Below the pieces are notes generated by a model. That model was not told the origin of the DNA and searched no databases. It saw only the letters and a program-made list of their open reading frames with translations. The translations under genes were made by a program, and so were the position numbers. From contig CAZIYE010000001.1 of the NCBI GenBank assembly GCA_964543385.1, positions 1 to 32,000 of the forward strand: a DNA stretch of 32,000 nucleotides, in the 5' to 3' direction. This document shows, piece after piece, positions 843-31,710 of this stretch; the stretch's first letter is position 1, and every line of letters starts with the position of its first letter. This stretch comes from an uncultured Candidatus Saccharibacteria bacterium (GTDB lineage: Bacteria > Patescibacteriota > UBA1384 > XYA2-FULL-43-10 > 1-14-0-10-43-13).

Positions 843-1667
843 ATGGACGGTTTGGGTAAAATATTAGGTGTCTCCGATAAAGCTACATATTTTTTTAGCA
901 ATCTCCAAATGATACTTAATTGGACTCTGATTTTGGATGTTCTTATAGTTTCAGTTTTATTCTATTGGGCTTATCTTTTCTTGCACGAGACAAAGGCAAT
1001 GAGAATTTTATATGGCTTATTTATTCTGGTTGCATTAACAGCAATTGGTTATTTATTCAATTTACTACTATTGAACTGGATACTAAGATATCTGATGGCA
1101 ATGCTTGTGGTTGCAATACCAATTGTTTTTCAGCCGGAGCTCAGAGCTGCTCTTGAAAAGCTCGGGCGCACTAAATTCTTGAGTGATTTAACTTTCTCCA
1201 AGGAAAGTAATTCTAGAATAATTGATGAAATAGCAAACGCAGTTACGGATTTGGCTAAACAAAAGATTGGTTGTCTAATTGTATTACAGCGCCAAACAGG
1301 CTTGAGGGAATATATTGAAACTGGCATAAAATTAGAAGCCCAAGTTTCGGGGGCGCTACTATCTTCAATATTTTTTCCAAGATCACCACTTCACGATGGG
1401 GCTGTAATATTGTCCGGAGATAAAATAGTTTCCGCAAAGTCTATTTTGCCCGTATCTGGGGCATCTATTAATCCTGGCTTAGGAACTAGGCACCGGGCAG
1501 GACTCGGTGTAACAGAGGGTTCGGATGCGGTTTCCATCATCGTTTCCGAGGAGACTGGTTCTCTATCTATAGCAGTTGGAGGAAAACTAGAAAGAAGAAT
1601 TTCCGAGGAACGCCTGCGTAGTCGGTTATCATATTTGCTTAGAAGCAGCATAAAGGCTCATGATTAA
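843..1667 (+). CDS. cdaA: Diadenylate cyclase CdaA/DacA (membrane-anchored DAC domain)
   Basis: Three N-terminal hydrophobic helices precede a DAC domain with the PLHDGAVIL and GTRHRAGLG motifs. A GAGGG ribosome-binding site lies upstream. Confidence 0.9.
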   Translation: MDGLGKILGVSDKATYFFSNLQMILNWTLILDVLIVSVLFYWAYLFLHETKAMRILYGLFILVALTAIGYLFNLLLLNWILRYLMAMLVVAIPIVFQPELRAALEKLGRTKFLSDLTFSKESNSRIIDEIANAVTDLAKQKIGCLIVLQRQTGLREYIETGIKLEAQVSGALLSSIFFPRSPLHDGAVILSGDKIVSAKSILPVSGASINPGLGTRHRAGLGVTEGSDAVSIIVSEETGSLSIAVGGKLERRISEERLRSRLSYLLRSSIKAHD

Positions 1668-1669
1668 AG

Positions 1670-2878
1670 ATGTATAAATTTCTAACAAAAAATCTAGCAA
1701 TCAAAATTATCTGTCTTGTTGCGGCAGCAAGCCTTTGGATTTATGTAGCAACTGCTCAAAATAGCGTGGCAAAATTTCCTGGCTCAGTAAAGATTAAAGT
1801 ATTCAATACCCAGACAAGTCTCGTTGCCGTCTATGATGTCAAAGAAGTCGAAATAAAAGTCATGACTGATTCTGCTAATTGGCGCAAGTTATCAGCTGAG
1901 TCATTTTCTGCTTACGTTGATTTGTCCAGTTATACGGCAGGAACCTATGAAGTGCCTATCAATGTAGTCTCTTCTGTATCAGGAGTGCAGGTAGTCGAAA
2001 AAAAACCAGATAAGATACTTATTAGTCTAGAACCAGTTCTAAGCAAAGAGGTTCCTATTCTTAAAAAAATAGAGGGCAATGCTGCTGAGGGGATGACAGC
2101 TGGAATAGTTACTTTTAATCCAGACAAGGCAGTTATTCGTGGAGCAAAAAGTCTTGTAGAAAACATTCAAGAGGCAACAGCCAAAGTAGCCCTTAGCGGC
2201 GAATCAACGAGTTTTAGTAAGAAAATTACGCTCTCTATTTCTGGTGTAGAGGAATCAGATGGGGCTGTGGAGATAACCCCCTCAGAGGTAACTACAGAAG
2301 TGTCTATTATCAAAGGAGCTAACATCAAATCTGTTGGTGTAAAACCAAGTGTTAAGGGATCGCCCAAAACTAATTATTTTATTTCTGATATTGTTGTTAA
2401 TCCAAACGTCGTTGACGTTACTGGCTCGACTGTTTCTATCTCCGATATAAAATTTTTAGAAACCACTGTAGTCGATATTGGTAATGCTACGGCGGATATT
2501 ACCAAAGATGTTCTCCTAAAGCTTCCTAGTGGTGTTTCACTACTGGATCCCTCAACCTCAAGTGTTCAAGTGGAGATAAAAATATCGTCTATAAGTGTTA
2601 CTAGGGATATTGTTACTAGTAGTTTCAAACATATTAATAATAATCTTGACGTTGCATCAATAAATCCGGGAGAAGTGACTATTAAATGTTCCGGTAACTT
2701 AGCCTTATTTGATAACTTAGATAAATCGTCAGTATCCGTGCTCCTAAATTTTGAAAATAAGATTCCGAATACCTTTGGCGAAATCTACTTTGATCTGCTG
2801 CCTAGCGATATTAGTGTTCCCTCTGGTATGGAAATCATTGGTGTTACAACGAAAAATATTACCGCCAGGATTAGATAA
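1670..2878 (+). CDS. cdaR: YbbR-domain protein, CdaA regulator CdaR
   Basis: The start lies 2 nt after the cdaA stop. The protein has an N-terminal TM helix followed by about 400 aa of repeated beta-rich YbbR-like modules. This is the canonical cdaA-cdaR pairing. Confidence 0.8.
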   Translation: MYKFLTKNLAIKIICLVAAASLWIYVATAQNSVAKFPGSVKIKVFNTQTSLVAVYDVKEVEIKVMTDSANWRKLSAESFSAYVDLSSYTAGTYEVPINVVSSVSGVQVVEKKPDKILISLEPVLSKEVPILKKIEGNAAEGMTAGIVTFNPDKAVIRGAKSLVENIQEATAKVALSGESTSFSKKITLSISGVEESDGAVEITPSEVTTEVSIIKGANIKSVGVKPSVKGSPKTNYFISDIVVNPNVVDVTGSTVSISDIKFLETTVVDIGNATADITKDVLLKLPSGVSLLDPSTSSVQVEIKISSISVTRDIVTSSFKHINNNLDVASINPGEVTIKCSGNLALFDNLDKSSVSVLLNFENKIPNTFGEIYFDLLPSDISVPSGMEIIGVTTKNITARIR

Positions 2879-2914
2879 AAAGCTAAAATGTTCCCTGGAT
2901 AGTATCTTTTAGGC

Positions 2915-2943
2915 TTGACTTATAAACCGCTTACGTTTAAAAT
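2915..2943 (+). promoter_or_regulatory. Sigma-70-like promoter TTGACT-17 nt-TAAAAT
   Basis: Hexamers at 2915-2920 and 2938-2943 have a 17-nt spacer. A 7-bp inverted repeat, TGTATTG/CAATACA (2953-2973), follows. Confidence 0.5.
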
Positions 2944-2979
2944 ATTAAACTGTATTGTGAAAAGCAATACAAAAACACT

Positions 2980-4107
2980 ATGGCATTATTATCAGATTTA
3001 GAACCTCCGTCGTCTACAAAGACACAGGAGACAAAAAATCAAAACAATTTAATAGCAAACAAGTTTTATAAACTAACGAGTAAGTTTTCCTCTTTATGGA
3101 CCATGTTAGTTTTTTTTGTTGGCCAATCCAGAAATTTTCCAGCATTTGTTGGTAATATATACAAGCAGAATTCAAAATTTCTTCCTCATTTTGTAATAGT
3201 ATTTCTAGTGCTAGTAGTCGCTACTTCAAATGTTGCAGAATCGGCAAGGGCAAAGGCTCTAACGTTTGACCTCGTGTCTCCGAATCCTGACGAAGAGTTT
3301 TCGGTTGCAACTGATGTGGACAGATTTACTCCACTAGTGGAGAATGATCCTATCTTACTTGATAAGTATATATTAGCACAGATAAACTATGATGGATTCG
3401 CTCAAAATGTTGCATCAATAAATACCCAGTTAACGGCTAGGGTAGAGCCTTTGCCTGATAATACTAAGGAAGCGGTATCTTATATTGTTAAAGCTGGTGA
3501 TTCACTTTCTCAGATAGCAGCAAATTTTGGGGTCAAGTTAGTCGCAGTTAAGTATCTAAATGATATTGAAGGTGATGTTATTAAACCTGGTGCTAAAATT
3601 AAAATTCCATCAAAGGCGTATACTGTTTCAGCGTCAGAAATAGCAAAGAAAGAGCAAGCAAAAAATATTAAACTGGCAAAATCCAATCGTAATACTGTGT
3701 CTAGATCAACCAGCAGAAGCAGTTATGCAGGAGGATATCAGGGAGATGTTAGCATCGGTCTCTCAACGCCACTCTCATACTATCAATATATATCGCGTGG
3801 CGTGAGCCGATATCATAATGGTATTGATTATGCTACAGGTGTAGGGACTCCTGTTATTGCTGCTGCAAATGGAGTAGTTATAGCCACTTCTACTGGCTGG
3901 TCTGGTGGATATGGCAATCAGATAGTAGTATCGCATGGAAACGGTGTTGCAACCAGATACGCTCATTTAAACTCAGTAAAAGTCTCCTCTGGACAAACGG
4001 TAGTGCAAGGGCAACTGATTGGCTATTCTGGAAATAGCGGTAATTCTACTGGACCTCATCTTCATTTTGAAAAGATTGTTAATGGTCGTACAGTAAACCC
4101 GTTCTAA
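2980..4107 (+). CDS. LysM-domain M23 family metallopeptidase (cell-wall endopeptidase), membrane-anchored
   Basis: A TM segment (FVIVFLVLVVATSNVA) is followed by a LysM motif (YIVKAGDSLSQIAANFGV...LNDI...IKPGAKIKIP). The M23 catalytic motifs HNGIDYA and GNSTGPHLHFE are present. The start codon is uncertain because there is no SD at 2980. Confidence 0.85.
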   Translation: MALLSDLEPPSSTKTQETKNQNNLIANKFYKLTSKFSSLWTMLVFFVGQSRNFPAFVGNIYKQNSKFLPHFVIVFLVLVVATSNVAESARAKALTFDLVSPNPDEEFSVATDVDRFTPLVENDPILLDKYILAQINYDGFAQNVASINTQLTARVEPLPDNTKEAVSYIVKAGDSLSQIAANFGVKLVAVKYLNDIEGDVIKPGAKIKIPSKAYTVSASEIAKKEQAKNIKLAKSNRNTVSRSTSRSSYAGGYQGDVSIGLSTPLSYYQYISRGVSRYHNGIDYATGVGTPVIAAANGVVIATSTGWSGGYGNQIVVSHGNGVATRYAHLNSVKVSSGQTVVQGQLIGYSGNSGNSTGPHLHFEKIVNGRTVNPF

Positions 4108-4131
4108 GCTCTATCACTAACTATCACTAGG

Positions 4132-4156
4132 TCTCTGGCGTTGTCAGGGATTTTGT
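4132..4156 (+). terminator. Weak intrinsic terminator candidate (TCTCTG-7 nt loop-CAGGGA then TTTTGTGTT)
   Basis: A 6-bp stem with one G-U pair is followed by a T-rich tract downstream of the peptidase gene. Confidence 0.35.
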
Positions 4157-4219
4157 GTTACTATAATATTTGATTAACTAAATCTTTCCATATGGTGTCT
4201 GCCACCTTGAAGCTAAATT

Positions 4220-5194
4220 ATGTTTATTGACGAAGTAGAAATTTATGTTAAGGCTGGAAACGGTGGAAACGGTGCCGTCTCTTTTCGTCGTGAAAAGTAT
4301 ATACCAAATGGTGGACCAGACGGTGGTGACGGTGCCAAGGGCGGAGACATCGTCTTCGAAGTTGATAGCAGAGTCCACGGTCTTTCCACATATACCTGTC
4401 GGAAGCGATTTTTAGCCAAGAATGGCCAAAATGGTATGGGCAGTAATAAATCAGGGAAAAATGCAGAAAATTTAGTACTGAAAGTGCCAGCAGGCACAGA
4501 GATCTATGATCACGAAAAGTTGGTGGTTGATCTTACAGAGGAGGGGCAAGTCTATCTCATGGCAAAAGGTGGAAAGGGAGGATGGGGCAATCAACATTTT
4601 GCAACCAGTATAAAGCAGGCACCTAAGTGGGCTAAAGACGGTATGAAGGGGGAGTCGCACAAACTTCGGTTGGTGCTAAAAACCATCGCAGCTGTTGGGC
4701 TAATCGGTCTCCCAAATGCTGGCAAATCAACCTTGCTGTCTGTTTTAACAAACGCTAAACCAAAGATCGCCGATTATCCATTTACGACGCTAGAACCAAA
4801 TTTGGGCACATATGTAGATAAGGACTCCAGAATCATCATCGCTGACATTCCCGGGCTAATTGAGGGTGCTGCAGAGGGTAAGGGACTCGGCGATAAATTC
4901 CTAAAGCACATAGAGCGAACCAAGATTGTTCTTCATCTGATTGACGCCAGCTCATTAGATGTCAAAAGTGATTATAATATTATTAGAGCTGAGCTCAAGG
5001 CATTTTCTAAAGAATTAATGAAAAAGAAACAGATTGTAGTCTTGAATAAGATAGAGCTTCTATGTGAAGATATTGTCGCTCAGAAAATGAAAGAATTGAA
5101 ATCTCTAAAATCGAAACCAGTAGCGATATCAGCCTCAACACATAAAGGCCTTGATAAATTAATGCAAATAGTCAAGAATACTCTTGTCGATTAG
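4220..5194 (+). CDS. obg: GTPase Obg (short form: Obg fold + G domain, no C-terminal domain)
   Basis: The N-terminus has the glycine-rich Obg fold (MFIDEVEIYVKAGNGGNGAVSFRREKY...GGDGAKGGD). The G-domain motifs are G1 GLPNAGKST, G3 DIPGLIEGA and G4 NKIE. Confidence 0.93.
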   Translation: MFIDEVEIYVKAGNGGNGAVSFRREKYIPNGGPDGGDGAKGGDIVFEVDSRVHGLSTYTCRKRFLAKNGQNGMGSNKSGKNAENLVLKVPAGTEIYDHEKLVVDLTEEGQVYLMAKGGKGGWGNQHFATSIKQAPKWAKDGMKGESHKLRLVLKTIAAVGLIGLPNAGKSTLLSVLTNAKPKIADYPFTTLEPNLGTYVDKDSRIIIADIPGLIEGAAEGKGLGDKFLKHIERTKIVLHLIDASSLDVKSDYNIIRAELKAFSKELMKKKQIVVLNKIELLCEDIVAQKMKELKSLKSKPVAISASTHKGLDKLMQIVKNTLVD

Positions 5195-5248
5195 AAAAAT
5201 ACACTTATATTTGGTCTCTTGTGTGGAAATCTACTGTAAAATTACCAA

Positions 5249-5277
5249 TTGACACCATACTAGTACTTATCTATACT
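5249..5277 (+). promoter_or_regulatory. rpoB promoter P1: TTGACA-17 nt-TATACT
   Basis: Consensus -35 at 5249-5254, a 17-nt spacer, and -10 at 5272-5277. Confidence 0.5.
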
Positions 5278-5312
5278 GTAACTAATCCAATGGAAAATGA
5301 GGTATACTTGTG

Positions 5313-5341
5313 TTGACAAGTGAATTCTCGTGTGCTATTAT
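5313..5341 (+). promoter_or_regulatory. rpoB promoter P2: TTGACA-17 nt-(TGc)TATTAT, extended -10
   Basis: Consensus -35 at 5313-5318 and -10 at 5336-5341, preceded by TGC (an extended -10 TGn). Confidence 0.55.
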
Positions 5342-5490
5342 TTATTCTAATAGAATTATTTTTAGAGTTGGAAAAAAAGTTGGGTTTCAGTTGTACTCTA
5401 AACAGAAGATAGTTATTATATTTCCCCGAAAGCAATCGGGTGAATTTTTGTGGTTAATTTAATAAATATAAATTTATATTAAGGAGAGCG

Positions 5491-8400
5491 ATGGCAACTA
5501 GTATGAAAAACGTCACTACTCGTATTTTACCTCGACAGGAAAGTCCCTTTGAAAAGTTACCAAATCTCATAGAGATTCAAACTAAATCTTATGAATGGTT
5601 TTTCAAAGAAGGCTTAAGAGAGCTTCTGGACGAAATCTCTCCGGTTGAAGATTTTACCAGCGAACTTTACTCGCTCACTTTTGGCGATTATTATCTTGAT
5701 AAACCTCGAATCGATGAAAAAACCGCTCGAGAAAAGAATCTTACTTTCAAGGCACCGCTGCGAGTTAAAGTGTCTCTTCTAAATAAACAGACAAAAGAGA
5801 TTAAAGAGGGCGAGGTTTTCCTCGGTGATTTCCCTATCATGACTCGTTGCGGAACTTTTATTATAAACGGTGTTGAGCGTTGTGTAGTTTCTCAGATAGT
5901 TAGATCATACGGTGTACTCTTTACTGCCGAAAGAATCAACGACAAAAGCTACTTTGGTGCCAAGGTCATTCCAAATAGAGGTGCATGGCTTGAGCTTGAG
6001 AGCAACTCTAAAGGCGTCATCACTGTCAAGGTTGATCGCAAAAGAAGAATCCCCGTCACTACATTTTTAAGAGCACTTGGAGTTGGTACTGATGAGCAGA
6101 TAAAGGCATTATTTACCGACGTCGATACTGAGGAACTAAAATTCATCGATGCAACTCTTGATAAAGATCCCGCCAAGAGTTACGAAGAAGGTCTTGTTGA
6201 AACATATAAGAGAATCCGTCCTGGAGATCTCGCTACACCAGAGTCAGCAAAATCTTTCATCGAGATGATGCTTTATAGTCCAAAAAGGTATGATTTAGGA
6301 CGTGTTGGCCGATACAAATTGAATCAACGTCTAGGTTTGAAGATTGAAAATACTGTTGAAAATAGAATTTTCCGCAAAGAAGACTTGGTTGAAATAATTA
6401 AAGAAATTATTCGTCTAAACAATACTCCTGGCGCCAAAGCAGATGATACCGATGCGTTGAAAAATAGAAGAATTAAGGCTGTGGGCGAATCTGTCCAAGG
6501 TCGAATTCGTGTTGGACTTCTTAGAGTAGAAAGAATCATCAAAGACAGAATGAGTGTTCTTGATCCTGTTGATATTGCCCCACAAGCCTTGGTCAATTCA
6601 AGACCAGTGGTAGCTGCTCTCCAAGAGTTTTTCTCTTCATCTCAACTTTCTCAGTTCATGAATCAGACTAATCCATTATCGGAGCTTGAGCACAAAAGAA
6701 CTCTTTCTGCGACAGGTCCAGGTGGTCTATCCAGAGAAAGAGCCGGTTTTGAAGTTCGAGACGTTCATGAATCGCACTACGGACGTATTTGTCCTATTGA
6801 ATCCCCTGAAGGTCCAAACATCGGTTTGGTAAGTTATATGGCTTCATATGCCAGAATAAATGACTACGGATTTATGGAAACACCATACCGCAAGGTTAAG
6901 ATTGAAAATGGTAAGGCAAAAGTTACTGACGATGTTGTATATCTTGATGCCGGAACTGAAGAAAAAGCTATAATTGCACCTGCTTCAGTAGAAATTGACG
7001 AGAAAGGCTATATTAAGGGAGATAGAGTTATTGTTCGTCGCTTTGGCCATCCTGATATTGAATCAGCTTCGCTTGTTGAATTTATGGATGTATCGCCAAG
7101 ACAAATTGTATCTATTGCTACTTCTCTTATTCCTTTCGTTGAGCATGATGACGGTGCTAGGGCAATGATGGGCTCGAACATGCAACGCCAAGCTGTACCA
7201 CTAATCACTCCAGATTCACCTATTGTTGGTACTGGTATGGAAAAAGCAGCAGCTCATTATTCTGGTCAGATAATTCTTGCGAAAAATAGTGGAACTGTTA
7301 GCCATGTTTCGTCAAGGTTGATCCGTGTCAAGGGCGAAAAAGGTGAGGAAGACGAATACTATCTTGAGAAATTTGCTCGTTCAAATCAAGGTACTTTAAT
7401 CAACCAACGCCCAGTTGTTAATGTTGGAGACGTTGTCAAAGCTGACGATGTTATCGCTGACTCATCTGCAACTGATAATGGTGAAATTGCATTAGGACAG
7501 AATCTGCTAGTTGCATTTATGCCATGGGGCGGCTCAAACTTTGAAGACGCTATTATTATTTCTGATCGTTTAGTAAAAGAACATACATTATCCTCCGTTC
7601 ATATTGAGCAATACTCTATCGAAGTTCGAGATACAAAGCTTGGACCTGAAGTATTAACTCGCGATATTCCAAATGTTTCCGAAGAAGCACTATCTAATCT
7701 GGATGAACTAGGAATTATAAGGATCGGCGCAGAGGTTCAATCTGGCGACATTCTCACAGGTAAGATTTCACCAAAAGGTGAAACGGAGCTTTCTAGTGAA
7801 GAGAAACTTCTTCGCGCTATCTTTGGCGAAAAAGCTAAGGATGTCCGTGACTCATCTCTAAGATTACCTCATGGTGAATACGGCAAAGTAGTGAATGTTA
7901 AGATCTTCTCAAAAGAAACTGGCGACGAATTACCTACCGGTGTATATCAAATGGTTGAAGTTTCAGTTGCTCAATTGAGAAAAATATCAGTCGGTGATAA
8001 GTTGGCTGGTCGACATGGTAACAAAGGTGTTATATCAGTTATTCTTCCACAAGAAGACATGCCCTTCATGCCGGACGGTCGTCCTGTAGACGTAGTTCTA
8101 AACCCTCTTGGCGTAATCTCACGTATGAATGTTGGTCAGATATTAGAAACACATCTTGGTCTGGCTGCTATGCATGGTGGCTACAAGATCGCAACCCCAG
8201 TATTTGAAGGAATTCAAATTGAAGAGATCAAAGAAAGATTGAAAAAAGAAGGTCTTCCAGAGGATGGTAAAATCCAGCTTATTGATGGCCGAACAGGCGA
8301 TACTTTTGATCGAAAAACTACTGTTGGAATAATGTATATTCTAAAACTTCACCATCTAGTTGATGACAAGATGCACGCCAGAAGTGTCGGTCCATACTCA

Positions 8401-13778: not shown

Positions 13779-13802
13779 TTCAAATACAAAGCTGTATATA
13801 TT

Positions 13803-13832
13803 AAAAAATGACCTGAAACATGGTCATTTTTT
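13803..13832. terminator. Bidirectional intrinsic terminator (AAAAAATGACC-8 nt loop-GGTCATTTTTT)
   Basis: An 11-bp stem has an A-tract on one side and a T-tract on the other. It sits between the convergent rpsG (+) and the orphan gene (-). Confidence 0.7.
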
Positions 13833-13864
13833 AATAATCTATATGCAGTTGATTTTTTCGGGTT

Positions 13865-13893
13865 GCCGAATTGCGATCACATCGCAATTCGGC
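13865..13893. other. Perfect 13-bp palindrome/hairpin GCCGAATTGCGAT-CAC-ATCGCAATTCGGC
   Basis: I read this directly from the sequence. It starts 3 nt beyond the orphan gene's TGA stop and has no U-tract on either strand. Confidence 0.8.
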
Positions 13894-13896
13894 AGG

Positions 13897-14292
13897 TCAT
13901 TGGTCAGTAATCAAAACAGAGACATTCCACGATCCGGGAGTTGCCAGCTTCTTAGGCTGGTACCAGCGTTGAATTTCGCGGTACATTTTAGCAACTACTG
14001 ACTTAGCAGCATTGCGGATGGCAATAGATGGGTTGTAGTCCCATTTACTCTCTAAAACTTTGCCATCTACGCTTTCTATGCTACAGGTGTAAGAATGTAT
14101 CTGATGAGGGCCGACCGAGTCACGTACGTGACATTCGAGGAATACTTTCAAAGACCTTTCGAGAAAGGATCTTTGTAAACCAGGAGCCAATCTCGGTAGA
14201 TATGTTCGTATTGTCATATCATACCTTAACCACTCCTGATCTATTGGACGGATAGTTACTTCAATCCAAGGTATGGTTAACGGTTCAACCAT
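13897..14292 (-). CDS. Orphan hypothetical protein (131 aa from ATG 14292; 153 aa if the TTG at 14358 is used); no recognisable family
   Basis: This is the only long minus-strand ORF not overlapping a plus-strand gene. The ATG at 14290-14292 is preceded by GAGGAG with 6-nt spacing. A TGA stop is followed by two hairpins. Local GC is higher than in the flanking genes. Confidence 0.6.
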   Translation of the reverse strand: MVEPLTIPWIEVTIRPIDQEWLRYDMTIRTYLPRLAPGLQRSFLERSLKVFLECHVRDSVGPHQIHSYTCSIESVDGKVLESKWDYNPSIAIRNAAKSVVAKMYREIQRWYQPKKLATPGSWNVSVLITDQ

Positions 14293-14370
14293 AATCTTCT
14301 CCTCAAACGAGATTGTGCAGAGTTTAGCAAAGTATCTATTTAACCGCAATAGTTTCAATAGGAGATCCTG

Positions 14371-14399
14371 TTGACAGTAACTCTAAAATTAGTTATTAT
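14371..14399 (+). promoter_or_regulatory. fusA promoter TTGACA-17 nt-TATTAT
   Basis: Hexamers at 14371-14376 and 14394-14399. The leader is about 67 nt and ends in a GAGGAA SD. Confidence 0.55.
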
Positions 14400-14472
14400 T
14401 AAGCAGCAAAACGAGGGGAATTTTTTAGTTAGGAAACAAATTGGAATTAATTTAAAAGATCGAGGAATTTAA

Positions 14473-25944: not shown

Positions 25945-26646
25945 ATGTCTGACAAACCAGAAGAAAAAGTAGAGAATAAATCAGAGAGACCAGTAAAAAA
26001 TATCATGAGAAAAAGGTTTCACGATGATAAGAGAGAAGCGCCAGAGTTTGAAGAGCGCGTTATTGAAGTTCGCCGTGTAGCCAGAACTGTTAAAGGTGGA
26101 CGACGTATCAGATTTAGAGCTCTAGTTGTAATTGGTAATAGAAAAGGCAAGATCGGAATGGGCCTTGGCAAATCCAATGATGTTTCTGAGGCTGTAAGAA
26201 AAGCTGTTACTCAAGCCAAGAAGAATCTAGTGATAGTTCCAATCATCAACGGCACGATTCCTTATGAAGTTACATCAAAACATGGTTCAGCTGTAGTTAT
26301 GCTAAAACCTGCTACTAGTGGTACATCTATTGTGGCTGGTGGTAGTGTTCGCGCAGTAGCTGATCTTGCAGGTATTACAGACATTCTTTCTAAAATGCTC
26401 GGAAGCGCAAGCAAAGTAAACAATATCATTGCTACCATGAAGGCACTTTCAACTTTCAATGTTGCGTATACTGAAAAGATCAGAGAGTTTGCAGAGAATC
26501 AAAAAGATAGAGTAGTACAAGCACAAGCAGTAGCAACTTTAGCAACTGAAGCGGTTGAAGTTCCTAAAACTGTTGTTGCAGAAAAGACTGAAAAGAAACC
26601 AAAAACAGATGTTAAAAAAGCTGCCAAGAAAAGCATGAAAAAATAG
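25945..26646 (+). CDS. rpsE: 30S ribosomal protein S5 with N- and C-terminal extensions (233 aa)
   Basis: The core is RVARTVKGGRRIRFRALVVIGNRKGKIGMGLGKSNDVSEAVRKA. It is flanked by ~35-aa N-terminal and ~65-aa C-terminal charged or Ala/Val-rich extensions. Confidence 0.96.
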   Translation: MSDKPEEKVENKSERPVKNIMRKRFHDDKREAPEFEERVIEVRRVARTVKGGRRIRFRALVVIGNRKGKIGMGLGKSNDVSEAVRKAVTQAKKNLVIVPIINGTIPYEVTSKHGSAVVMLKPATSGTSIVAGGSVRAVADLAGITDILSKMLGSASKVNNIIATMKALSTFNVAYTEKIREFAENQKDRVVQAQAVATLATEAVEVPKTVVAEKTEKKPKTDVKKAAKKSMKK

Positions 26647-26664: not shown

Positions 26665-27153
26665 ATGGAATTAGTATCAATAAAATCTAAAACTAAAAAG
26701 CGAATTGGCAGAGGACTGTCTGCTGGCCAAGGTAAAACTGCTGGCCGCGGCACCAAGGGACAAAAATCACGAAGTGGTTATAATTTGCCAAGAAAATTTG
26801 AAGGTGGCCAAACACCACTGTCAATGAGGTTGGCAAAGCTTCCAGGATTTAAGTCAATCCACAAAAAAGCTGAGGTTATATCCCTTGATCAAATTACAGC
26901 TAATTACAAAGACGGTGAAATAGTATCTCTAAAGACACTATCAGAGAAAAATCTTATTCAGGCTAAGGTCAGAAAAGTCAAAGTTTTGAATAATGGTGAG
27001 CTTTCAGTCGCTGTTACTTTTGATGACGTAAAAGTCTCAAAAGCTGTTACCGAAGCTGCCAAAGCGGTTAAACCAGAAAAAGTAGCTGCCGCAGATAAAA
27101 CAGAATTGCCAAAAGCAAAAGTTGCCAAAAGCAAACCAGAAACAAAAAAATAG
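26665..27153 (+). CDS. rplO: 50S ribosomal protein L15 with a Lys/Ala-rich tail
   Basis: The [24 protein letters not shown] motif is present. The gene starts 18 nt after rpsE, so no L30 gene lies between them. Confidence 0.96.
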
Positions 27154-27176
27154 TTGTGCTCAATTGTATATACTGT

Positions 27177-27202
27177 AAAAACACCCAGATCTGGGTGTTT
27201 TT
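27177..27202. terminator. Intrinsic terminator AAAAACACCCA-GATC-TGGGTGTTTTT (A-tract and T-tract, potentially bidirectional)
   Basis: A perfect 11-bp stem followed by T5, 24 nt after the rplO stop. Confidence 0.75.
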
Positions 27203-27228
27203 ACGTTTAGAGACAAATTTGACCAATG

Positions 27229-27257
27229 TTCAAGTTTTGTCGATTTTCATGTACAAT
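27229..27257 (+). promoter_or_regulatory. Candidate promoter for the NYN gene: TTCAAG-17 nt-TACAAT
   Basis: Hexamers at 27229-27234 and 27252-27257. An AAAGGAAAAG purine-rich RBS precedes the ATG at 27283. Confidence 0.4.
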
Positions 27258-27282
27258 ATAAGTGTAAGTAATAAAGGAAAAG

Positions 27283-28020
27283 ATGTCTTTTAAATTTTTC
27301 ATGAAAAGACCAAATAATGAGACAAAAGATAAGCCAATTGTAAAAGCAGAGGCATCAGATGCAAATAATGTCCAACGAGCCCAAGATACAAAGAATAATC
27401 AAGTTTATGCCTTTATTGATGCCTCGAACCTTTTTTGGGGAGGAAAAGAAAGTATTGGTTTTCGCATCGACTACAAAAAATTGTTGAATTATTTAAAAGA
27501 AAGTCATAGTGTAACGAAGGCTTTTTACTATGGTGGTCTTCGAATATTCGATTTTGAGTTTTCCGTATTAGACAACAAAGATCTAAATCTATCCCTGGTA
27601 GAGGAATATTTGCAGAAAATTGAAGCGGATGCAGAGGAAAAAGAGCGTATTCTTATACAGAAATCCCTAAATAAAGTAAATTTTTATAAACTTTTGGAAT
27701 CCTATGGCTATATTATGAAGATAAAACCAGCTAAGGTATTTTATAGTGATGATGACGAGGATCAAGATGCCCCCATCCTAAAAGCGAACTGCGATGTTGA
27801 TATGACCTTTGACATGATGAGGTATATGCAGCAATACTCAGGCGTAGTTGCAATGACCGGGGACGGCGACTTTGCTTCAGTATTAAACTATCTAAAAGCA
27901 CATGACAGGGGTATGACGGTGGTCTCTCGATGGGATCGTACAGCCTCTGAGATTAGAAAAATCGCAGGAGATGATTTCGTTGACTTTGAGAAACTACGAG
28001 GACAAATATACCTTCGCTAG
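27283..28020 (+). CDS. NYN/LabA-like (PIN-superfamily) predicted ribonuclease with a ~55-aa internal insertion
   Basis: NYN acidic signature blocks are present: VYAFIDASNLF (D46, N49), KANCDVDMTFD (D171, D173, D177) and AMTGDGDFASVLNYLKAHDRGMTVVS (D194, D196). The N-terminal ~40 aa are Lys/Asn-rich and look disordered. Confidence 0.7.
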   Translation: MSFKFFMKRPNNETKDKPIVKAEASDANNVQRAQDTKNNQVYAFIDASNLFWGGKESIGFRIDYKKLLNYLKESHSVTKAFYYGGLRIFDFEFSVLDNKDLNLSLVEEYLQKIEADAEEKERILIQKSLNKVNFYKLLESYGYIMKIKPAKVFYSDDDEDQDAPILKANCDVDMTFDMMRYMQQYSGVVAMTGDGDFASVLNYLKAHDRGMTVVSRWDRTASEIRKIAGDDFVDFEKLRGQIYLR

Positions 28021-28050
28021 CCTAAACTATAATTTAGCTAAATTTTCACG

Positions 28051-28079
28051 TTGATTTATTCAACAAATTAAGCTATATT
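28051..28079 (+). promoter_or_regulatory. secY promoter TTGATT-17 nt-TATATT; the -10 ends 7 nt before the ATG
   Basis: Hexamers at 28051-28056 and 28074-28079. There is no SD before the ATG at 28087. Confidence 0.5.
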
Positions 28080-28086
28080 TCAATAT

Positions 28087-29361
28087 ATGGAGAAATTTTT
28101 CAAAATATGGGAATACAAGGACCTAAGGAACAAGATTATTGTTGCTGTTTCTCTTCTTATTTTAACTAGAATCCTTGCTCACATTCCATTGCCTGGTGTA
28201 GATCTTGCGAAGCTACAAGCATTTTTTGCGTCAAACCAAGTGTTTGGTTTTTTGAACATGTTTTCTGGTGGCACTATGAGTAATTTTTCAATTATTCTAA
28301 TGGGTGTAGGTCCATACATTACATCGTCTATTATTTTTCAACTGATGGGGATGATTTTCCCAGCCATTGAGCAACTACAAAAAGAAGGTGATGCGGGCCG
28401 TCAAAAAATAACTCAATACACAAGAATAGCTACTATACCATTAGCCATAATACAGGCCTATAGTATGTTAGTGTTACTTAAAAACCAAGGAGTTATTCCC
28501 GGATGGTCAATATTTGATCTTGTAGTGATGCTTATATCTGTAACTGCCGGTACTATGCTGTTAATGTGGATCGGCGAGATTATATCTGAAAAAGGCATTG
28601 GCAATGGAATGTCCTTAATTATCTCTTTAGGTATACTGTCTGCTTTCCCATCACAAATACGAAATACAGCGCTACTGTTGCAGTCTGGCGATACAGCAAA
28701 AATAGTGGGCGCAATTGTATTTGCAATTATCTTTATACTTGCAACAGCAGCAATTATCTTTATACAAGAAGGTCAGCGCAATATTCCTATAACTTATGCA
28801 CGTAAAGCAAGATATGGACAATCCAGCGGCTTTGCAAGCCACTTACCAATTAGGGTAAATATTGCTGGAGTTATTCCGATCATTTTTGCGATGAGTATGC
28901 TCGTTATTCCCGGTGTTTTAGCAAAATATTTGGAGGGTGCCCGCACTGTTTGGCTTGCACAGGGCGCAAAATTTGTTGGTGATCTTTTCACCAACAATCA
29001 GGTTTTTTATAGTATTGCCTATTTTGTACTTGTTATTATATTTACTTATTTTTATACATCTGCGGTGTTTAAACCATCTCAAATATCAGAAAATTTACAA
29101 AAACAAAGCGGATTTATACCTGGTATCAGGCCTGGTTCTGAAACAAAAACATATCTTCAGGCAATTATATCTAGGATTACTTTCTCAGGTGCCATGTTTT
29201 TGGGAATCATCGCTGTTATGCCATTTATTGTACAGGCAATAACAAATATAGATACTCTTGTTCTTGGTGGTACGGGAATTTTGATTGTGGTATCGGTTGT
29301 TATAGAAACCATGAGACAAATTCAATCACAAACCATGATGCACACATATGAGAGATATTAA
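28087..29361 (+). CDS. secY: Preprotein translocase subunit SecY
   Basis: The protein has a 10-TM profile, the LAHIPLPGV...MFSGG...FSIILMGVGPYITSSIIFQL motif and the GIRPG motif. Confidence 0.97.
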   Translation: MEKFFKIWEYKDLRNKIIVAVSLLILTRILAHIPLPGVDLAKLQAFFASNQVFGFLNMFSGGTMSNFSIILMGVGPYITSSIIFQLMGMIFPAIEQLQKEGDAGRQKITQYTRIATIPLAIIQAYSMLVLLKNQGVIPGWSIFDLVVMLISVTAGTMLLMWIGEIISEKGIGNGMSLIISLGILSAFPSQIRNTALLLQSGDTAKIVGAIVFAIIFILATAAIIFIQEGQRNIPITYARKARYGQSSGFASHLPIRVNIAGVIPIIFAMSMLVIPGVLAKYLEGARTVWLAQGAKFVGDLFTNNQVFYSIAYFVLVIIFTYFYTSAVFKPSQISENLQKQSGFIPGIRPGSETKTYLQAIISRITFSGAMFLGIIAVMPFIVQAITNIDTLVLGGTGILIVVSVVIETMRQIQSQTMMHTYERY

Positions 29362-31176: not shown

Positions 31177-31323
31177 ATGAAAGTACAAGCATCAGTTAAA
31201 AAAATCTGCGATAAATGCAAGGTTGTCATAAGAAGTAAAAAAGGCAAGTCTTCTCGAACAAGTTCAAAGAGAAGGGTATTTGTTTTGTGCGAGAATCCTA
31301 AACATAAACAGAGACAAGGATAA
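31177..31323 (+). CDS. rpmJ: 50S ribosomal protein L36 (48 aa, with an internal 11-aa insertion)
   Basis: This gene is not in the ORF track because it is under 60 aa. My hand translation is [48 protein letters not shown]. The position between infA and rpsM is canonical. Confidence 0.9.
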
Positions 31324-31326
31324 ATA

Positions 31327-31710
31327 ATGGCTAGAATAGCAGGAATAAATCTTCCTAATGAAAAAAGAATAGAAATTGCACTGACTTATCTTTTCGGTAT
31401 TGGATTACCTCTAAGTCAAAGCATTCTAGGTGAGCTGAAGATTAGCCCTGATATTAGAGTTAAAGATGTAACTGACGAAGATCTTGAAAAGATCAGACAA
31501 TATATTTCTAAAAGATATCGAGTTGAAGGTGATCTTAGATCTGAAATCTCACAAAATATAAAGAGATTGAAAGACGTAGGTAGCTACAGAGGATTGAGAC
31601 ACAGTAAGAATTTGCCTGTCCACGGTCAAAGAACAAAGACTAATGCCAGAACAAAAAGAGGCAAAAAGGTCACCGTAGGATCAGGACGAAGAACAATTGA
31701 GAAGACATAA
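31327..31710 (+). CDS. rpsM: 30S ribosomal protein S13
   Basis: [26 protein letters not shown]...GSYRGLRH...[14 protein letters not shown] is canonical S13. Confidence 0.97.

Follow-up and report, generated by a model that had tools for sequence, protein, structure and literature searches.

Rae1/YacP (PF05991, NYN_YacP) is a bacterial PIN-like nuclease of the NYN group that cleaves mRNA in a ribosome-dependent manner, and the active site of the FEN and T5 D15 5′-nucleases and of the canonical PIN domains is arched over by a helical element that follows strand 2. There are thousands of bacterial LabA-like NYN proteins, and a substrate is known for almost none of them. Metal-dependent RNase activity has been established only for the NYN domain of MARF1, a proven Mg/Mn-dependent single-stranded RNase (ssRNase; PMC6217404), and for a CRISPR-associated NYN protein of Bacteroides fragilis, a sequence-nonspecific Mn2+-dependent ssRNase (Chi and White, bioRxiv 10.1101/2024.04.08.588522). 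NYN domains have been described as lacking a helical insert after strand 2, with an exposed active site (Matelska et al., PMC5499597; PMC6217404). Here, a stretch of 32,000 nucleotides (nt) from contig CAZIYE010000001.1 (the window) was analysed, in which a 245-residue protein is encoded between rplO and secY, in the str-S10-spc-alpha ribosomal cluster on the plus strand. By profile score, fold and catalytic motifs, this protein is a stand-alone NYN nuclease (LabA-like, PF01936/COG1432-type), and its location is best interpreted as that of a gene in a permissive site and does not point to a function at the ribosome or translocon.

We consider it probable that the product is an active metal-dependent NYN endoribonuclease with a helical cap and a tethered N-terminal peptide, made from its own promoter in a permissive spacer. 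The genomes of Patescibacteria are tiny and their RNA-decay toolkit is poorly understood; a conserved NYN subfamily under selection, with such a cap and peptide, is a reasonable candidate for RNA processing in these bacteria and a compact target for biochemistry.

Family membership and fold

The Pfam NYN profile PF01936 matches the protein with 68.1 bits (gathering score 24.2, E = 1.5e-18), in agreement with the original prediction, which had read an NYN-type nuclease from acidic signature blocks. The signature is intact, with FIDASN at residues 44–49, CDVDMTFD at residues 170–177 and TGDGDF at residues 192–197. The match extends over residues 42–234 and profile positions 3–143 of 145, with 193 residues stretched over 141 positions across the helical insert described below. 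An AlphaFold (AF2) model built from 51 homologues (predicted score in the local distance difference test (pLDDT) 86, predicted TM-score (pTM) 0.78) adopts a PIN-like α/β fold, the nearest solved structures being NYN domains. The top Foldseek matches in the Protein Data Bank (PDB) are VPA0982 of Vibrio parahaemolyticus (PDB entry 2qip, E = 6e-8, target TM 0.74) and the MARF1 NYN domain (PDB entry 5yaa, E = 4e-5), both with a probability of 1.00, followed by the T5 flap endonuclease (E = 4e-4, approximately 190 aligned columns).

VPA0982, of the NYN.COG1432 cluster, is also the best match by sequence, being retrieved by the family profile with E = 3e-7. The two single-domain proteins share the D-x-x-N, K-x-x-x-D-V...D and [ST]-G-D-G-D-F motifs. 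However, their sequence identity is only 16%, the window protein has approximately 40 extra residues after β2 that form a helical hairpin in the model, as well as an N-terminal peptide and linker, and its subfamily is found almost only in Patescibacteria. The gene is already labelled 'NYN domain-containing' or 'LabA/DUF88' in databases; NCBIfam assigns no family to the 245-residue protein, and PHROGs gives no significant match for it. A literature search on NYN proteins with Patescibacteria or the Candidate Phyla Radiation, on the subfamily and on the gene arrangement found nothing relevant.

The protein stands apart from Rae1/YacP, with which the original prediction had compared it. PF05991 was not listed for the protein even at E ≤ 1, and Rae1 lies outside the top 50 fold matches. 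The YacP family is marked by a 'GYN' motif after the first Asp (PMC5499597), whereas the window protein reads F-I-D-A-S-N-L-F-W-G-G, with D-A-S-N at this point. The YacP gene neighbourhood of mrnC, a yacO-type methyltransferase gene and tRNA synthetase genes is absent from the window and from 84 non-redundant loci.

Predicted active site

Residues D46, N49, D171, D173, D177, D194 and D196 are invariant in 51 sequences with identities to the window protein down to 44%, and T192-G-D194 (together with D196) is likewise invariant. In the model, the invariant Asp and Asn residues lie at the C-terminal ends of strands 41–46 and 187–191 and at the N terminus of helix 170–180. Profile alignment to 2qip, with a 3-residue SEQRES offset corrected, pairs D46, D171 and D194 with aspartates of VPA0982 (Table 1). 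Topology and homology together suggest that the Asp residues cluster in space.

The MARF1 NYN domain (PDB entries 5yaa and 6fdl) shares the fold, and its residues D178, N181, D246, S270 and D272 correspond to D46, N49, D171, T192 and D194; the D46-x-x-N49 and T192-G-D194 motifs thus reproduce the MARF1 catalytic arrangement. Mouse MARF1 requires each of D178, D215, D246 and D272, with N181 and S270 conserved (PMC6217404). The fourth Asp of MARF1, D215 at the end of β2, has no conserved counterpart here. MARF1 also has no insert after β2 and needs LOTUS/OST-HTH domains for RNA binding, none of which are present in the window protein. The B. fragilis protein is, like the window protein, a small stand-alone bacterial NYN of the PF01936 type with the same three-Asp centre, but it is encoded inside a type III CRISPR locus, whereas no CRISPR or defence genes flank the window gene. 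The VPA0982 triad has been superposed on MARF1 and on the B. fragilis protein, in which the D13A substitution abolishes Mn2+-dependent cleavage of single-stranded RNA (Chi and White, bioRxiv 10.1101/2024.04.08.588522). By comparison with these enzymes, the substrate of the window protein would most likely be single-stranded RNA, cut with the aid of Mg2+ or Mn2+ bound at D46, D171 and D194, with N49, D177, D196 and T192 assisting the metal-dependent cleavage.

The gene is under purifying selection. All five close orthologues are intact, with pN of 0.09–0.22 against pS of 0.83–0.91 (synonymous sites being saturated), and dN/dS is 0.08 for the closest pair (loci L012 and L007), so the gene is not a strain-specific pseudogene, the outcome that would have spoken against the original prediction. 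At non-synonymous sites, the NYN gene evolves approximately twice as fast as secY.

The invariance of the active site also bears on whether the protein might be a non-catalytic LabA-like regulator that binds RNA or protein without cleaving; a role of this kind has been proposed for LabA of cyanobacteria in clock output. Among bacterial COG1432 members, genetic study has been limited to LabA and LalA, which are known by regulatory phenotypes and not by nuclease assays (PMC5499597), and the insert described below could occlude the active site. Yet every canonical catalytic residue is invariant across the subfamily, and the nearest NYN domains to have been assayed show RNase activity (PMC6217404; bioRxiv 10.1101/2024.04.08.588522), which makes a purely regulatory protein very improbable.

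Helical insert and N-terminal peptide

In the model, 57 residues separate the strand at 77–86 from the strand at 144–149, and these include helices at 103–115 and 119–141 with pLDDT of 86–96, in keeping with the helical character that had been proposed for an E/K/L-rich insert of approximately 55 residues. At this position, the profile alignment leaves approximately 20 residues in 2qip, with a short crossover helix only. More distant NYN proteins match the family profile as two separate stretches, consistent with their lacking the insert. The modelled two-helix insert after β2 is thus a subfamily-specific departure from the described NYN domains and is new for NYN. The FEN/T5 D15 and PIN proteins likewise combine a PIN-like core with a helical element after strand 2, but their TM-scores with the model are low (0.36–0.40), and motifs and size differ. 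The insert probably caps the normally exposed NYN active site, which would narrow the choice of substrate.

A conserved N-terminal peptide is the second feature new for NYN. Proteins of the Berkelbacteria-like 'long' branch start with M-x-F-x-F-F-M-[KR]-[KR], followed by 25–40 variable K/E/P-rich residues that are modelled as disordered. The window protein conforms to this pattern: residues 1–40 are rich in Lys, Asn and Glu with pLDDT of 55–63, as anticipated for a disordered-looking, Lys/Asn-rich N terminus. The peptide with its linker (window 27283–27402; also the N termini of P0002–P0057) is found only in the long NYN subfamily and is absent from the subfamily of approximately 213 residues in Microgenomates and Paceibacteria; none of the other proteins encoded in the window or the sampled loci carries the peptide. 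On its disordered tether, the peptide is probably a docking or membrane-binding motif.

Family distribution and gene neighbourhoods

A word-indexed search gave 328 homologues, the named ones being NYN or LabA/DUF88 proteins of Berkelbacteria, Paceibacterota and Roizmanbacteria. An exhaustive profile search gave 4070 cluster representatives at E ≤ 1e-3 and only 45 at E ≤ 1e-30, indicating that the insert-bearing subfamily is small. Across 185,579 species genomes scanned, 116 stretches were confirmed (a count limited by the search pattern); the 80 loci kept are almost all from metagenome-assembled genomes (MAGs) of Patescibacteria. NYN genes of Patescibacteria type are also found in several TPA_asm MAGs titled 'uncultured Gammaproteobacteria', 'Pseudomonadales' or 'Spirochaetia' (L028, L036, L037, L040, L046, L052 and others), and for several of these genes the same context is seen again in MAGs labelled Collierbacteria or Roizmanbacteria; the taxonomy of these records is probably a placeholder or wrong. 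In a few MAGs (L047 3303–3989, L081 6007–6634, L063, L076 and L083), the NYN gene is split into two open reading frames (ORFs), for which a frameshift or assembly error is possible, or is present as two nearby copies.

To survey gene context, the S5, L15, SecY, Adk and Map proteins of the window were compared by tblastn with 107 loci. Apart from the window, only L012, L007/L008, L108 and the P0004 locus have the NYN gene adjoining secY. In L012 the order is S5-L15-NYN-SecY, with an NYN protein 81% identical to that of the window; in L007/L008 it is X-NYN-SecY; and in the P0004 locus (NYN identity 71%) genes for Bro-N, a DEAD helicase and cytochrome b5 precede NYN-secY-adk-map. L106 has L15-NYN on a contig that ends inside the NYN gene. 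All NYN relatives of ≤64% identity are located away from secY, and of the roughly 100 family loci surveyed approximately 95% have unrelated neighbourhoods. The window SecY is 78% identical to a named Candidatus Berkelbacteria protein, which places the window in a Berkelbacteria-like lineage, and the secY-adjacent NYN gene is confined to one narrow sub-clade of that lineage, with SecY identities of approximately 79% or more.

Clustering of ORFs all-against-all in 91 loci and the window region revealed no conserved neighbour common to more than 8 of 90 loci. The neighbours that recur reflect lineage-specific synteny (DUF4012 in 5 loci, mgsA in 4, era downstream in 4 and secY in 3). A Pfam census of the 123 immediate flanking proteins gave mostly housekeeping families (GTPases, MgsA, Mur ligases, DNA ligase and tRNA synthetases); it contained no defence or mobile-element signal, and no defence family was among the 25 most frequent.

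This census weighs directly on the alternative of a nuclease of defence or mobile-element type, or of a toxin, having reached a highly expressed locus; the original prediction had raised the defence type. The PADLOC model 'NYN, LabA-like' (PDLC01154) does match the protein with E = 3e-12, but only at positions 232–302 of 310, which is the generic C-terminal NYN core. The patchy distribution would fit such an origin, as would the variable contexts, among them L005 with N6_N4 methyltransferase, MutH and Y1 transposase genes nearby and the P0004 locus with its upstream Bro-N gene, and a few viral NYN proteins resemble the model. Neither the PADLOC coverage nor the flanks lend the idea support, however: neither a conserved partner gene nor an adjoining small gene of antitoxin type is present, the PHROGs search was negative, G+C is not anomalous, and the NYN identity tracks that of SecY as under vertical descent, with strong purifying selection. 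We therefore regard a defence or mobile-element nuclease as highly unlikely. A VapC-type PIN toxin of a toxin-antitoxin pair was considered separately and rejected, as there is no conserved small neighbour and the Pfam match is to NYN, not PIN.

A predicted transcription-unit boundary between rplO and secY

Gammaproteobacteria and Bacilli have rplO and secY in a shared operon, from which secY had departed in a single species among those studied by Brandis (PMC8046335); in the pattern described there, a few genes enter a spacer between operons, with further rearrangements afterwards. By the classical criterion for co-transcription, adjacency with neither terminator nor promoter between, rplO and secY do not form a unit in the window, nor in relatives without the insert, because a hairpin and a promoter-like site lie between them.

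The palindrome AAAAACACCCAGATCTGGGTGTTTTT at 27177–27202 is the core of the hairpin that follows rplO. The hairpin is predicted to fold at −18.9 kcal/mol (z = −6.2), a value matched by 0 of 200 shuffles, in support of the strong terminator that had been proposed upstream of the NYN gene; a simple terminator scan did not call the hairpin. Strong hairpins with a U-run, each differing in sequence, follow rplO in the window and in L012, L106 and L108, and likewise in L109 and L110, both of which have no NYN gene.

A consensus promoter scan gave 11 sites where 9.6 are expected by chance and is uninformative in this AT-rich DNA, so the promoter assignments rest on conservation. The candidate promoter of the NYN gene has a weak −35 element (3/6) and was not called by the scan. 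Nevertheless, a block of approximately 60 nt (TTAAAC/TTCAAG, 17 nt, TATGAT/TACAAT, then AGGA shortly before the ATG) accompanies the gene despite differing upstream genes, and its position is kept in 6 close orthologues, some of them in loci with an upstream gene other than rplO. A TAnAAT box approximately 25 nt before the ATG and a Shine-Dalgarno sequence are also found in most orthologues located elsewhere, GGAG or AGGA occupying the Shine-Dalgarno position, and upstream spacers in the long subfamily are almost always at least 110 nt. With its own −10 box, Shine-Dalgarno sequence and long spacer, the NYN gene looks like an independent unit with its own promoter, as the original prediction had it.

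The separate secY promoter, predicted from the window letters, is likewise borne out by relatives. In the promoter-like site TTGAT(T/A), 17 nt, TATA(T/G)T, the hexamers are conserved and the spacer between them varies. The boxes are kept in L012, L007, L108, L109, L110 and L111, whether NYN, rplO or purL lies upstream (window 28051–28089; L108 3945–4003; L109 3985–4021; L110 and L111 approximately 2950–3003). The site ends 7 nt before the secY ATG in the window and 6–8 nt before it across five Berkelbacteria-like genomes, with no Shine-Dalgarno sequence between; since there is no room for one, a leaderless secY mRNA is predicted. The promoter thus appears dedicated to secY, and the mRNA is probably leaderless, which provides a small testable point on gene expression in Berkelbacteria-like bacteria. 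As judged by the conserved SecY N terminus, the called SecY start in L109 lies 6 codons too early. Downstream of the NYN stop codon, the terminator scan called no terminator-like hairpin before the secY promoter, and a degree of read-through into secY is therefore possible.

The original prediction had attributed the interruption of the operon to the NYN cassette. A predicted terminator and promoter-like boxes do flank the cassette, but the insertion is not supported as the cause, because terminator and secY promoter are already present in the insert-free sisters and the split appears older than the insertion. The spacer would thus have been a transcription-unit boundary, with a terminator followed by a dedicated secY promoter, before the NYN gene arrived.

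Origin of the present gene position

Five loci anchored on SecY allow the ancestral arrangement to be considered. L108 (SecY identity 81%) has S5-L15, a 93-residue antisense ORF, then NYN-SecY. The P0279 locus (79%), L110 (79%) and L109 (77%) have S5-L15-SecY with no NYN gene, and L111 (78%) has purL-SecY with no rplO. L109 apparently belongs to the same 971-kb genome or contig as the NYN orthologue P0017 (61% identity), which adjoins rnhB and a DUF488 gene. A sister genome with rplO and secY adjacent and the NYN gene elsewhere suggests that the NYN gene predates its present position and moved into the rplO/secY spacer in one sub-clade, as a self-contained unit from elsewhere in the chromosome; the direction of this move is inferred from sequence comparison.

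Identities of the NYN protein and SecY to those of the window fall together (81/94, approximately 70/81 with the NYN value estimated from pN, 71/79 and 61/77%), and the G+C content of the NYN gene matches that of neighbouring genes. Both observations point to vertical descent with relocation within the genome rather than to horizontal acquisition, and a recent horizontal acquisition was rejected on these grounds.

The rplO/secY junction is a recurrent breakpoint in this lineage, as judged from sequence comparison of L111 (1–3000), the P0004 locus, L005 and the pair L007 (1–1080) and L012. The last two share 95% DNA identity from 40 nt upstream of the NYN ATG onward and are unrelated before that point. 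In L005, rplO is followed by unrelated genes (2551–6000). The 93-residue antisense ORF of L108 (2677–2958, minus strand) has no Pfam match and lies between the rplO terminator and the NYN gene, where the spacer has gained further sequence. An NYN gene in this spacer, with later or independent breaks in L007, the P0004 locus and L111, resembles the pattern described by Brandis; unlike the cases reported there, the boundary lies inside the classical spc operon (PMC8046335).

Several observations weigh against a permissive site reached by relocation. Its direction is drawn from only five SecY-anchored outgroup or ingroup loci. The NYN-secY adjacency is kept where the rplO side has been rearranged (L007 and the P0004 locus), persisting in five loci while the upstream side changes, which could mean selection for linkage. 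Other sublineages place the NYN gene directly 5′ of era (4 loci), beside a gene for a GTP_EFTU-family translational GTPase (cluster 14; 3 loci) or 3–5 kb from the spc end (L005 and L027), a hint of a link to translation. These observations would suit a nuclease tied to the ribosome or the Sec translocon, acting in co-translational mRNA surveillance or rRNA processing, for which the rplO-secY position would reflect the link. In Synechocystis, LabA/NYN proteins were co-purified with Rbp3 bound to ribosomes (PMC12232666); from bacterial NYN neighbourhoods, Anantharaman and Aravind, as cited in PMC5499597, proposed tRNA or rRNA processing; and the aromatic-basic N-terminal peptide could anchor the protein to a membrane or partner.

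Nonetheless, a ribosomal or Sec neighbour is missing from approximately 95% of family loci, and where such neighbours are present they belong to lineage-specific synteny blocks and do not represent independent recurrence; in L005 and L027 the gene merely lies near the end of the spc operon, approximately 3 kb past rplO and past adk, respectively. NYN and secY each have their own promoter-like box, a predicted terminator parts NYN from rplO, the protein lies outside the Rae1/YacP family, and the sister genome on what is apparently one 971-kb contig keeps rplO beside secY and has the NYN gene at a distant place. A ribosome- or translocon-tied nuclease is thus unlikely, and the step from location to function taken in the original prediction finds no support in a survey where secY adjacency is the exception. 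The 'universal' rplO-secY link is in this lineage already a transcription-unit boundary and a recurrent breakpoint, so a position in the ribosomal-protein cluster cannot be read as functional linkage; lineage-specific genome dynamics account for the striking position of the NYN gene.

A SecM/MifM-like arrest peptide regulating secY was also rejected, as the ORF encodes a full enzyme and lies away from secY in most genomes. More speculatively, the capped NYN subfamily may be a dedicated Patescibacteria RNase docked by its peptide at the membrane, translocon or ribosome and, in the Berkelbacteria-like sub-clade, genetically coupled to the leaderless secY unit through action on membrane-targeted or translating mRNAs, a Rae1-like surveillance attained independently in another NYN family; we regard this as a long shot.

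Layout and other features of the window

The features between rplO and secY are listed in Table 1; a 245-residue gene at this position had been proposed, and both of its neighbours are supported by Pfam matches. The rplO product is 85% identical to the L15 of L012.

Table 1 Features of the rplO-secY region, with window coordinates
Feature	Position	Strand	Evidence and remarks
rplO (L15, 162 residues)	26665..27153	+	Pfam Ribosomal_L27A, 29.4 bits (cut-off 21.5); K/A/E-rich C-terminal tail
Terminator-like hairpin 3′ of rplO	27174..27205	+	14-bp stem, A-run 5′, U-run 3′
Promoter-like block of the NYN gene	27229..27257	+	TTCAAG, 17 nt, TACAAT
Shine-Dalgarno-like AGGA	27275..27278	+	4 nt 5′ of the NYN ATG; read from the letters
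NYN/LabA-type predicted endoribonuclease gene (245 residues, ATG start)	27283..28020	+	Pfam NYN PF01936
N-terminal peptide MSFKFFMKR	27283..27309	+	Conserved in the long subfamily; pLDDT approximately 55
Low-complexity linker, probably disordered (residues 10–40)	27310..27402	+	pLDDT 55–63; length and sequence vary among homologues
Codon of D46, predicted catalytic Asp ending strand β1	27418..27420	+	Equivalent to VPA0982 D14 and mouse MARF1 D178
β2-β3 insert (residues 87–141)	27541..27705	+	Loop and helices 103–115 and 119–141
Codon of D171, predicted catalytic Asp at the N terminus of helix 170–180	27793..27795	+	Equivalent to VPA0982 D92
Codon of D194, predicted catalytic Asp after strand 187–191 (T-G-D-G-D)	27862..27864	+	Equivalent to VPA0982 D115 and mouse MARF1 D272
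secY promoter-like site	28051..28079	+	TTGATT, 17 nt, TATATT; scan hit 9/12
secY (424 residues)	28087..29361	+	Pfam SecY, 332 bits; followed by adk, map, infA, rpsM

Upstream of the NYN gene, the products of rpsE (25945–26646; S5, 233 residues) and rplO have long K/A/E/T-rich extensions relative to typical bacterial proteins. No tRNAs were found in the window, and Rfam gave zero matches at gathering score across it. The only sub-threshold match in the 24–32 kb region was Alpha_RBS at 31274–31359, just 5′ of rpsM (24.5 bits; gathering score 38; E = 0.02). The rpsG-fusA spacer (13779–14472) is unusually long at 694 nt, with a G+C content of 0.41–0.45; it contains a 153-residue minus-strand ORF (13897–14358) with no Pfam match, and nothing significant was found there in Rfam. 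The region 5′ of rpoB (843–5194) encodes a cdaA-type diadenylate cyclase with its YbbR partner, a LysM-M23 peptidase and obg.

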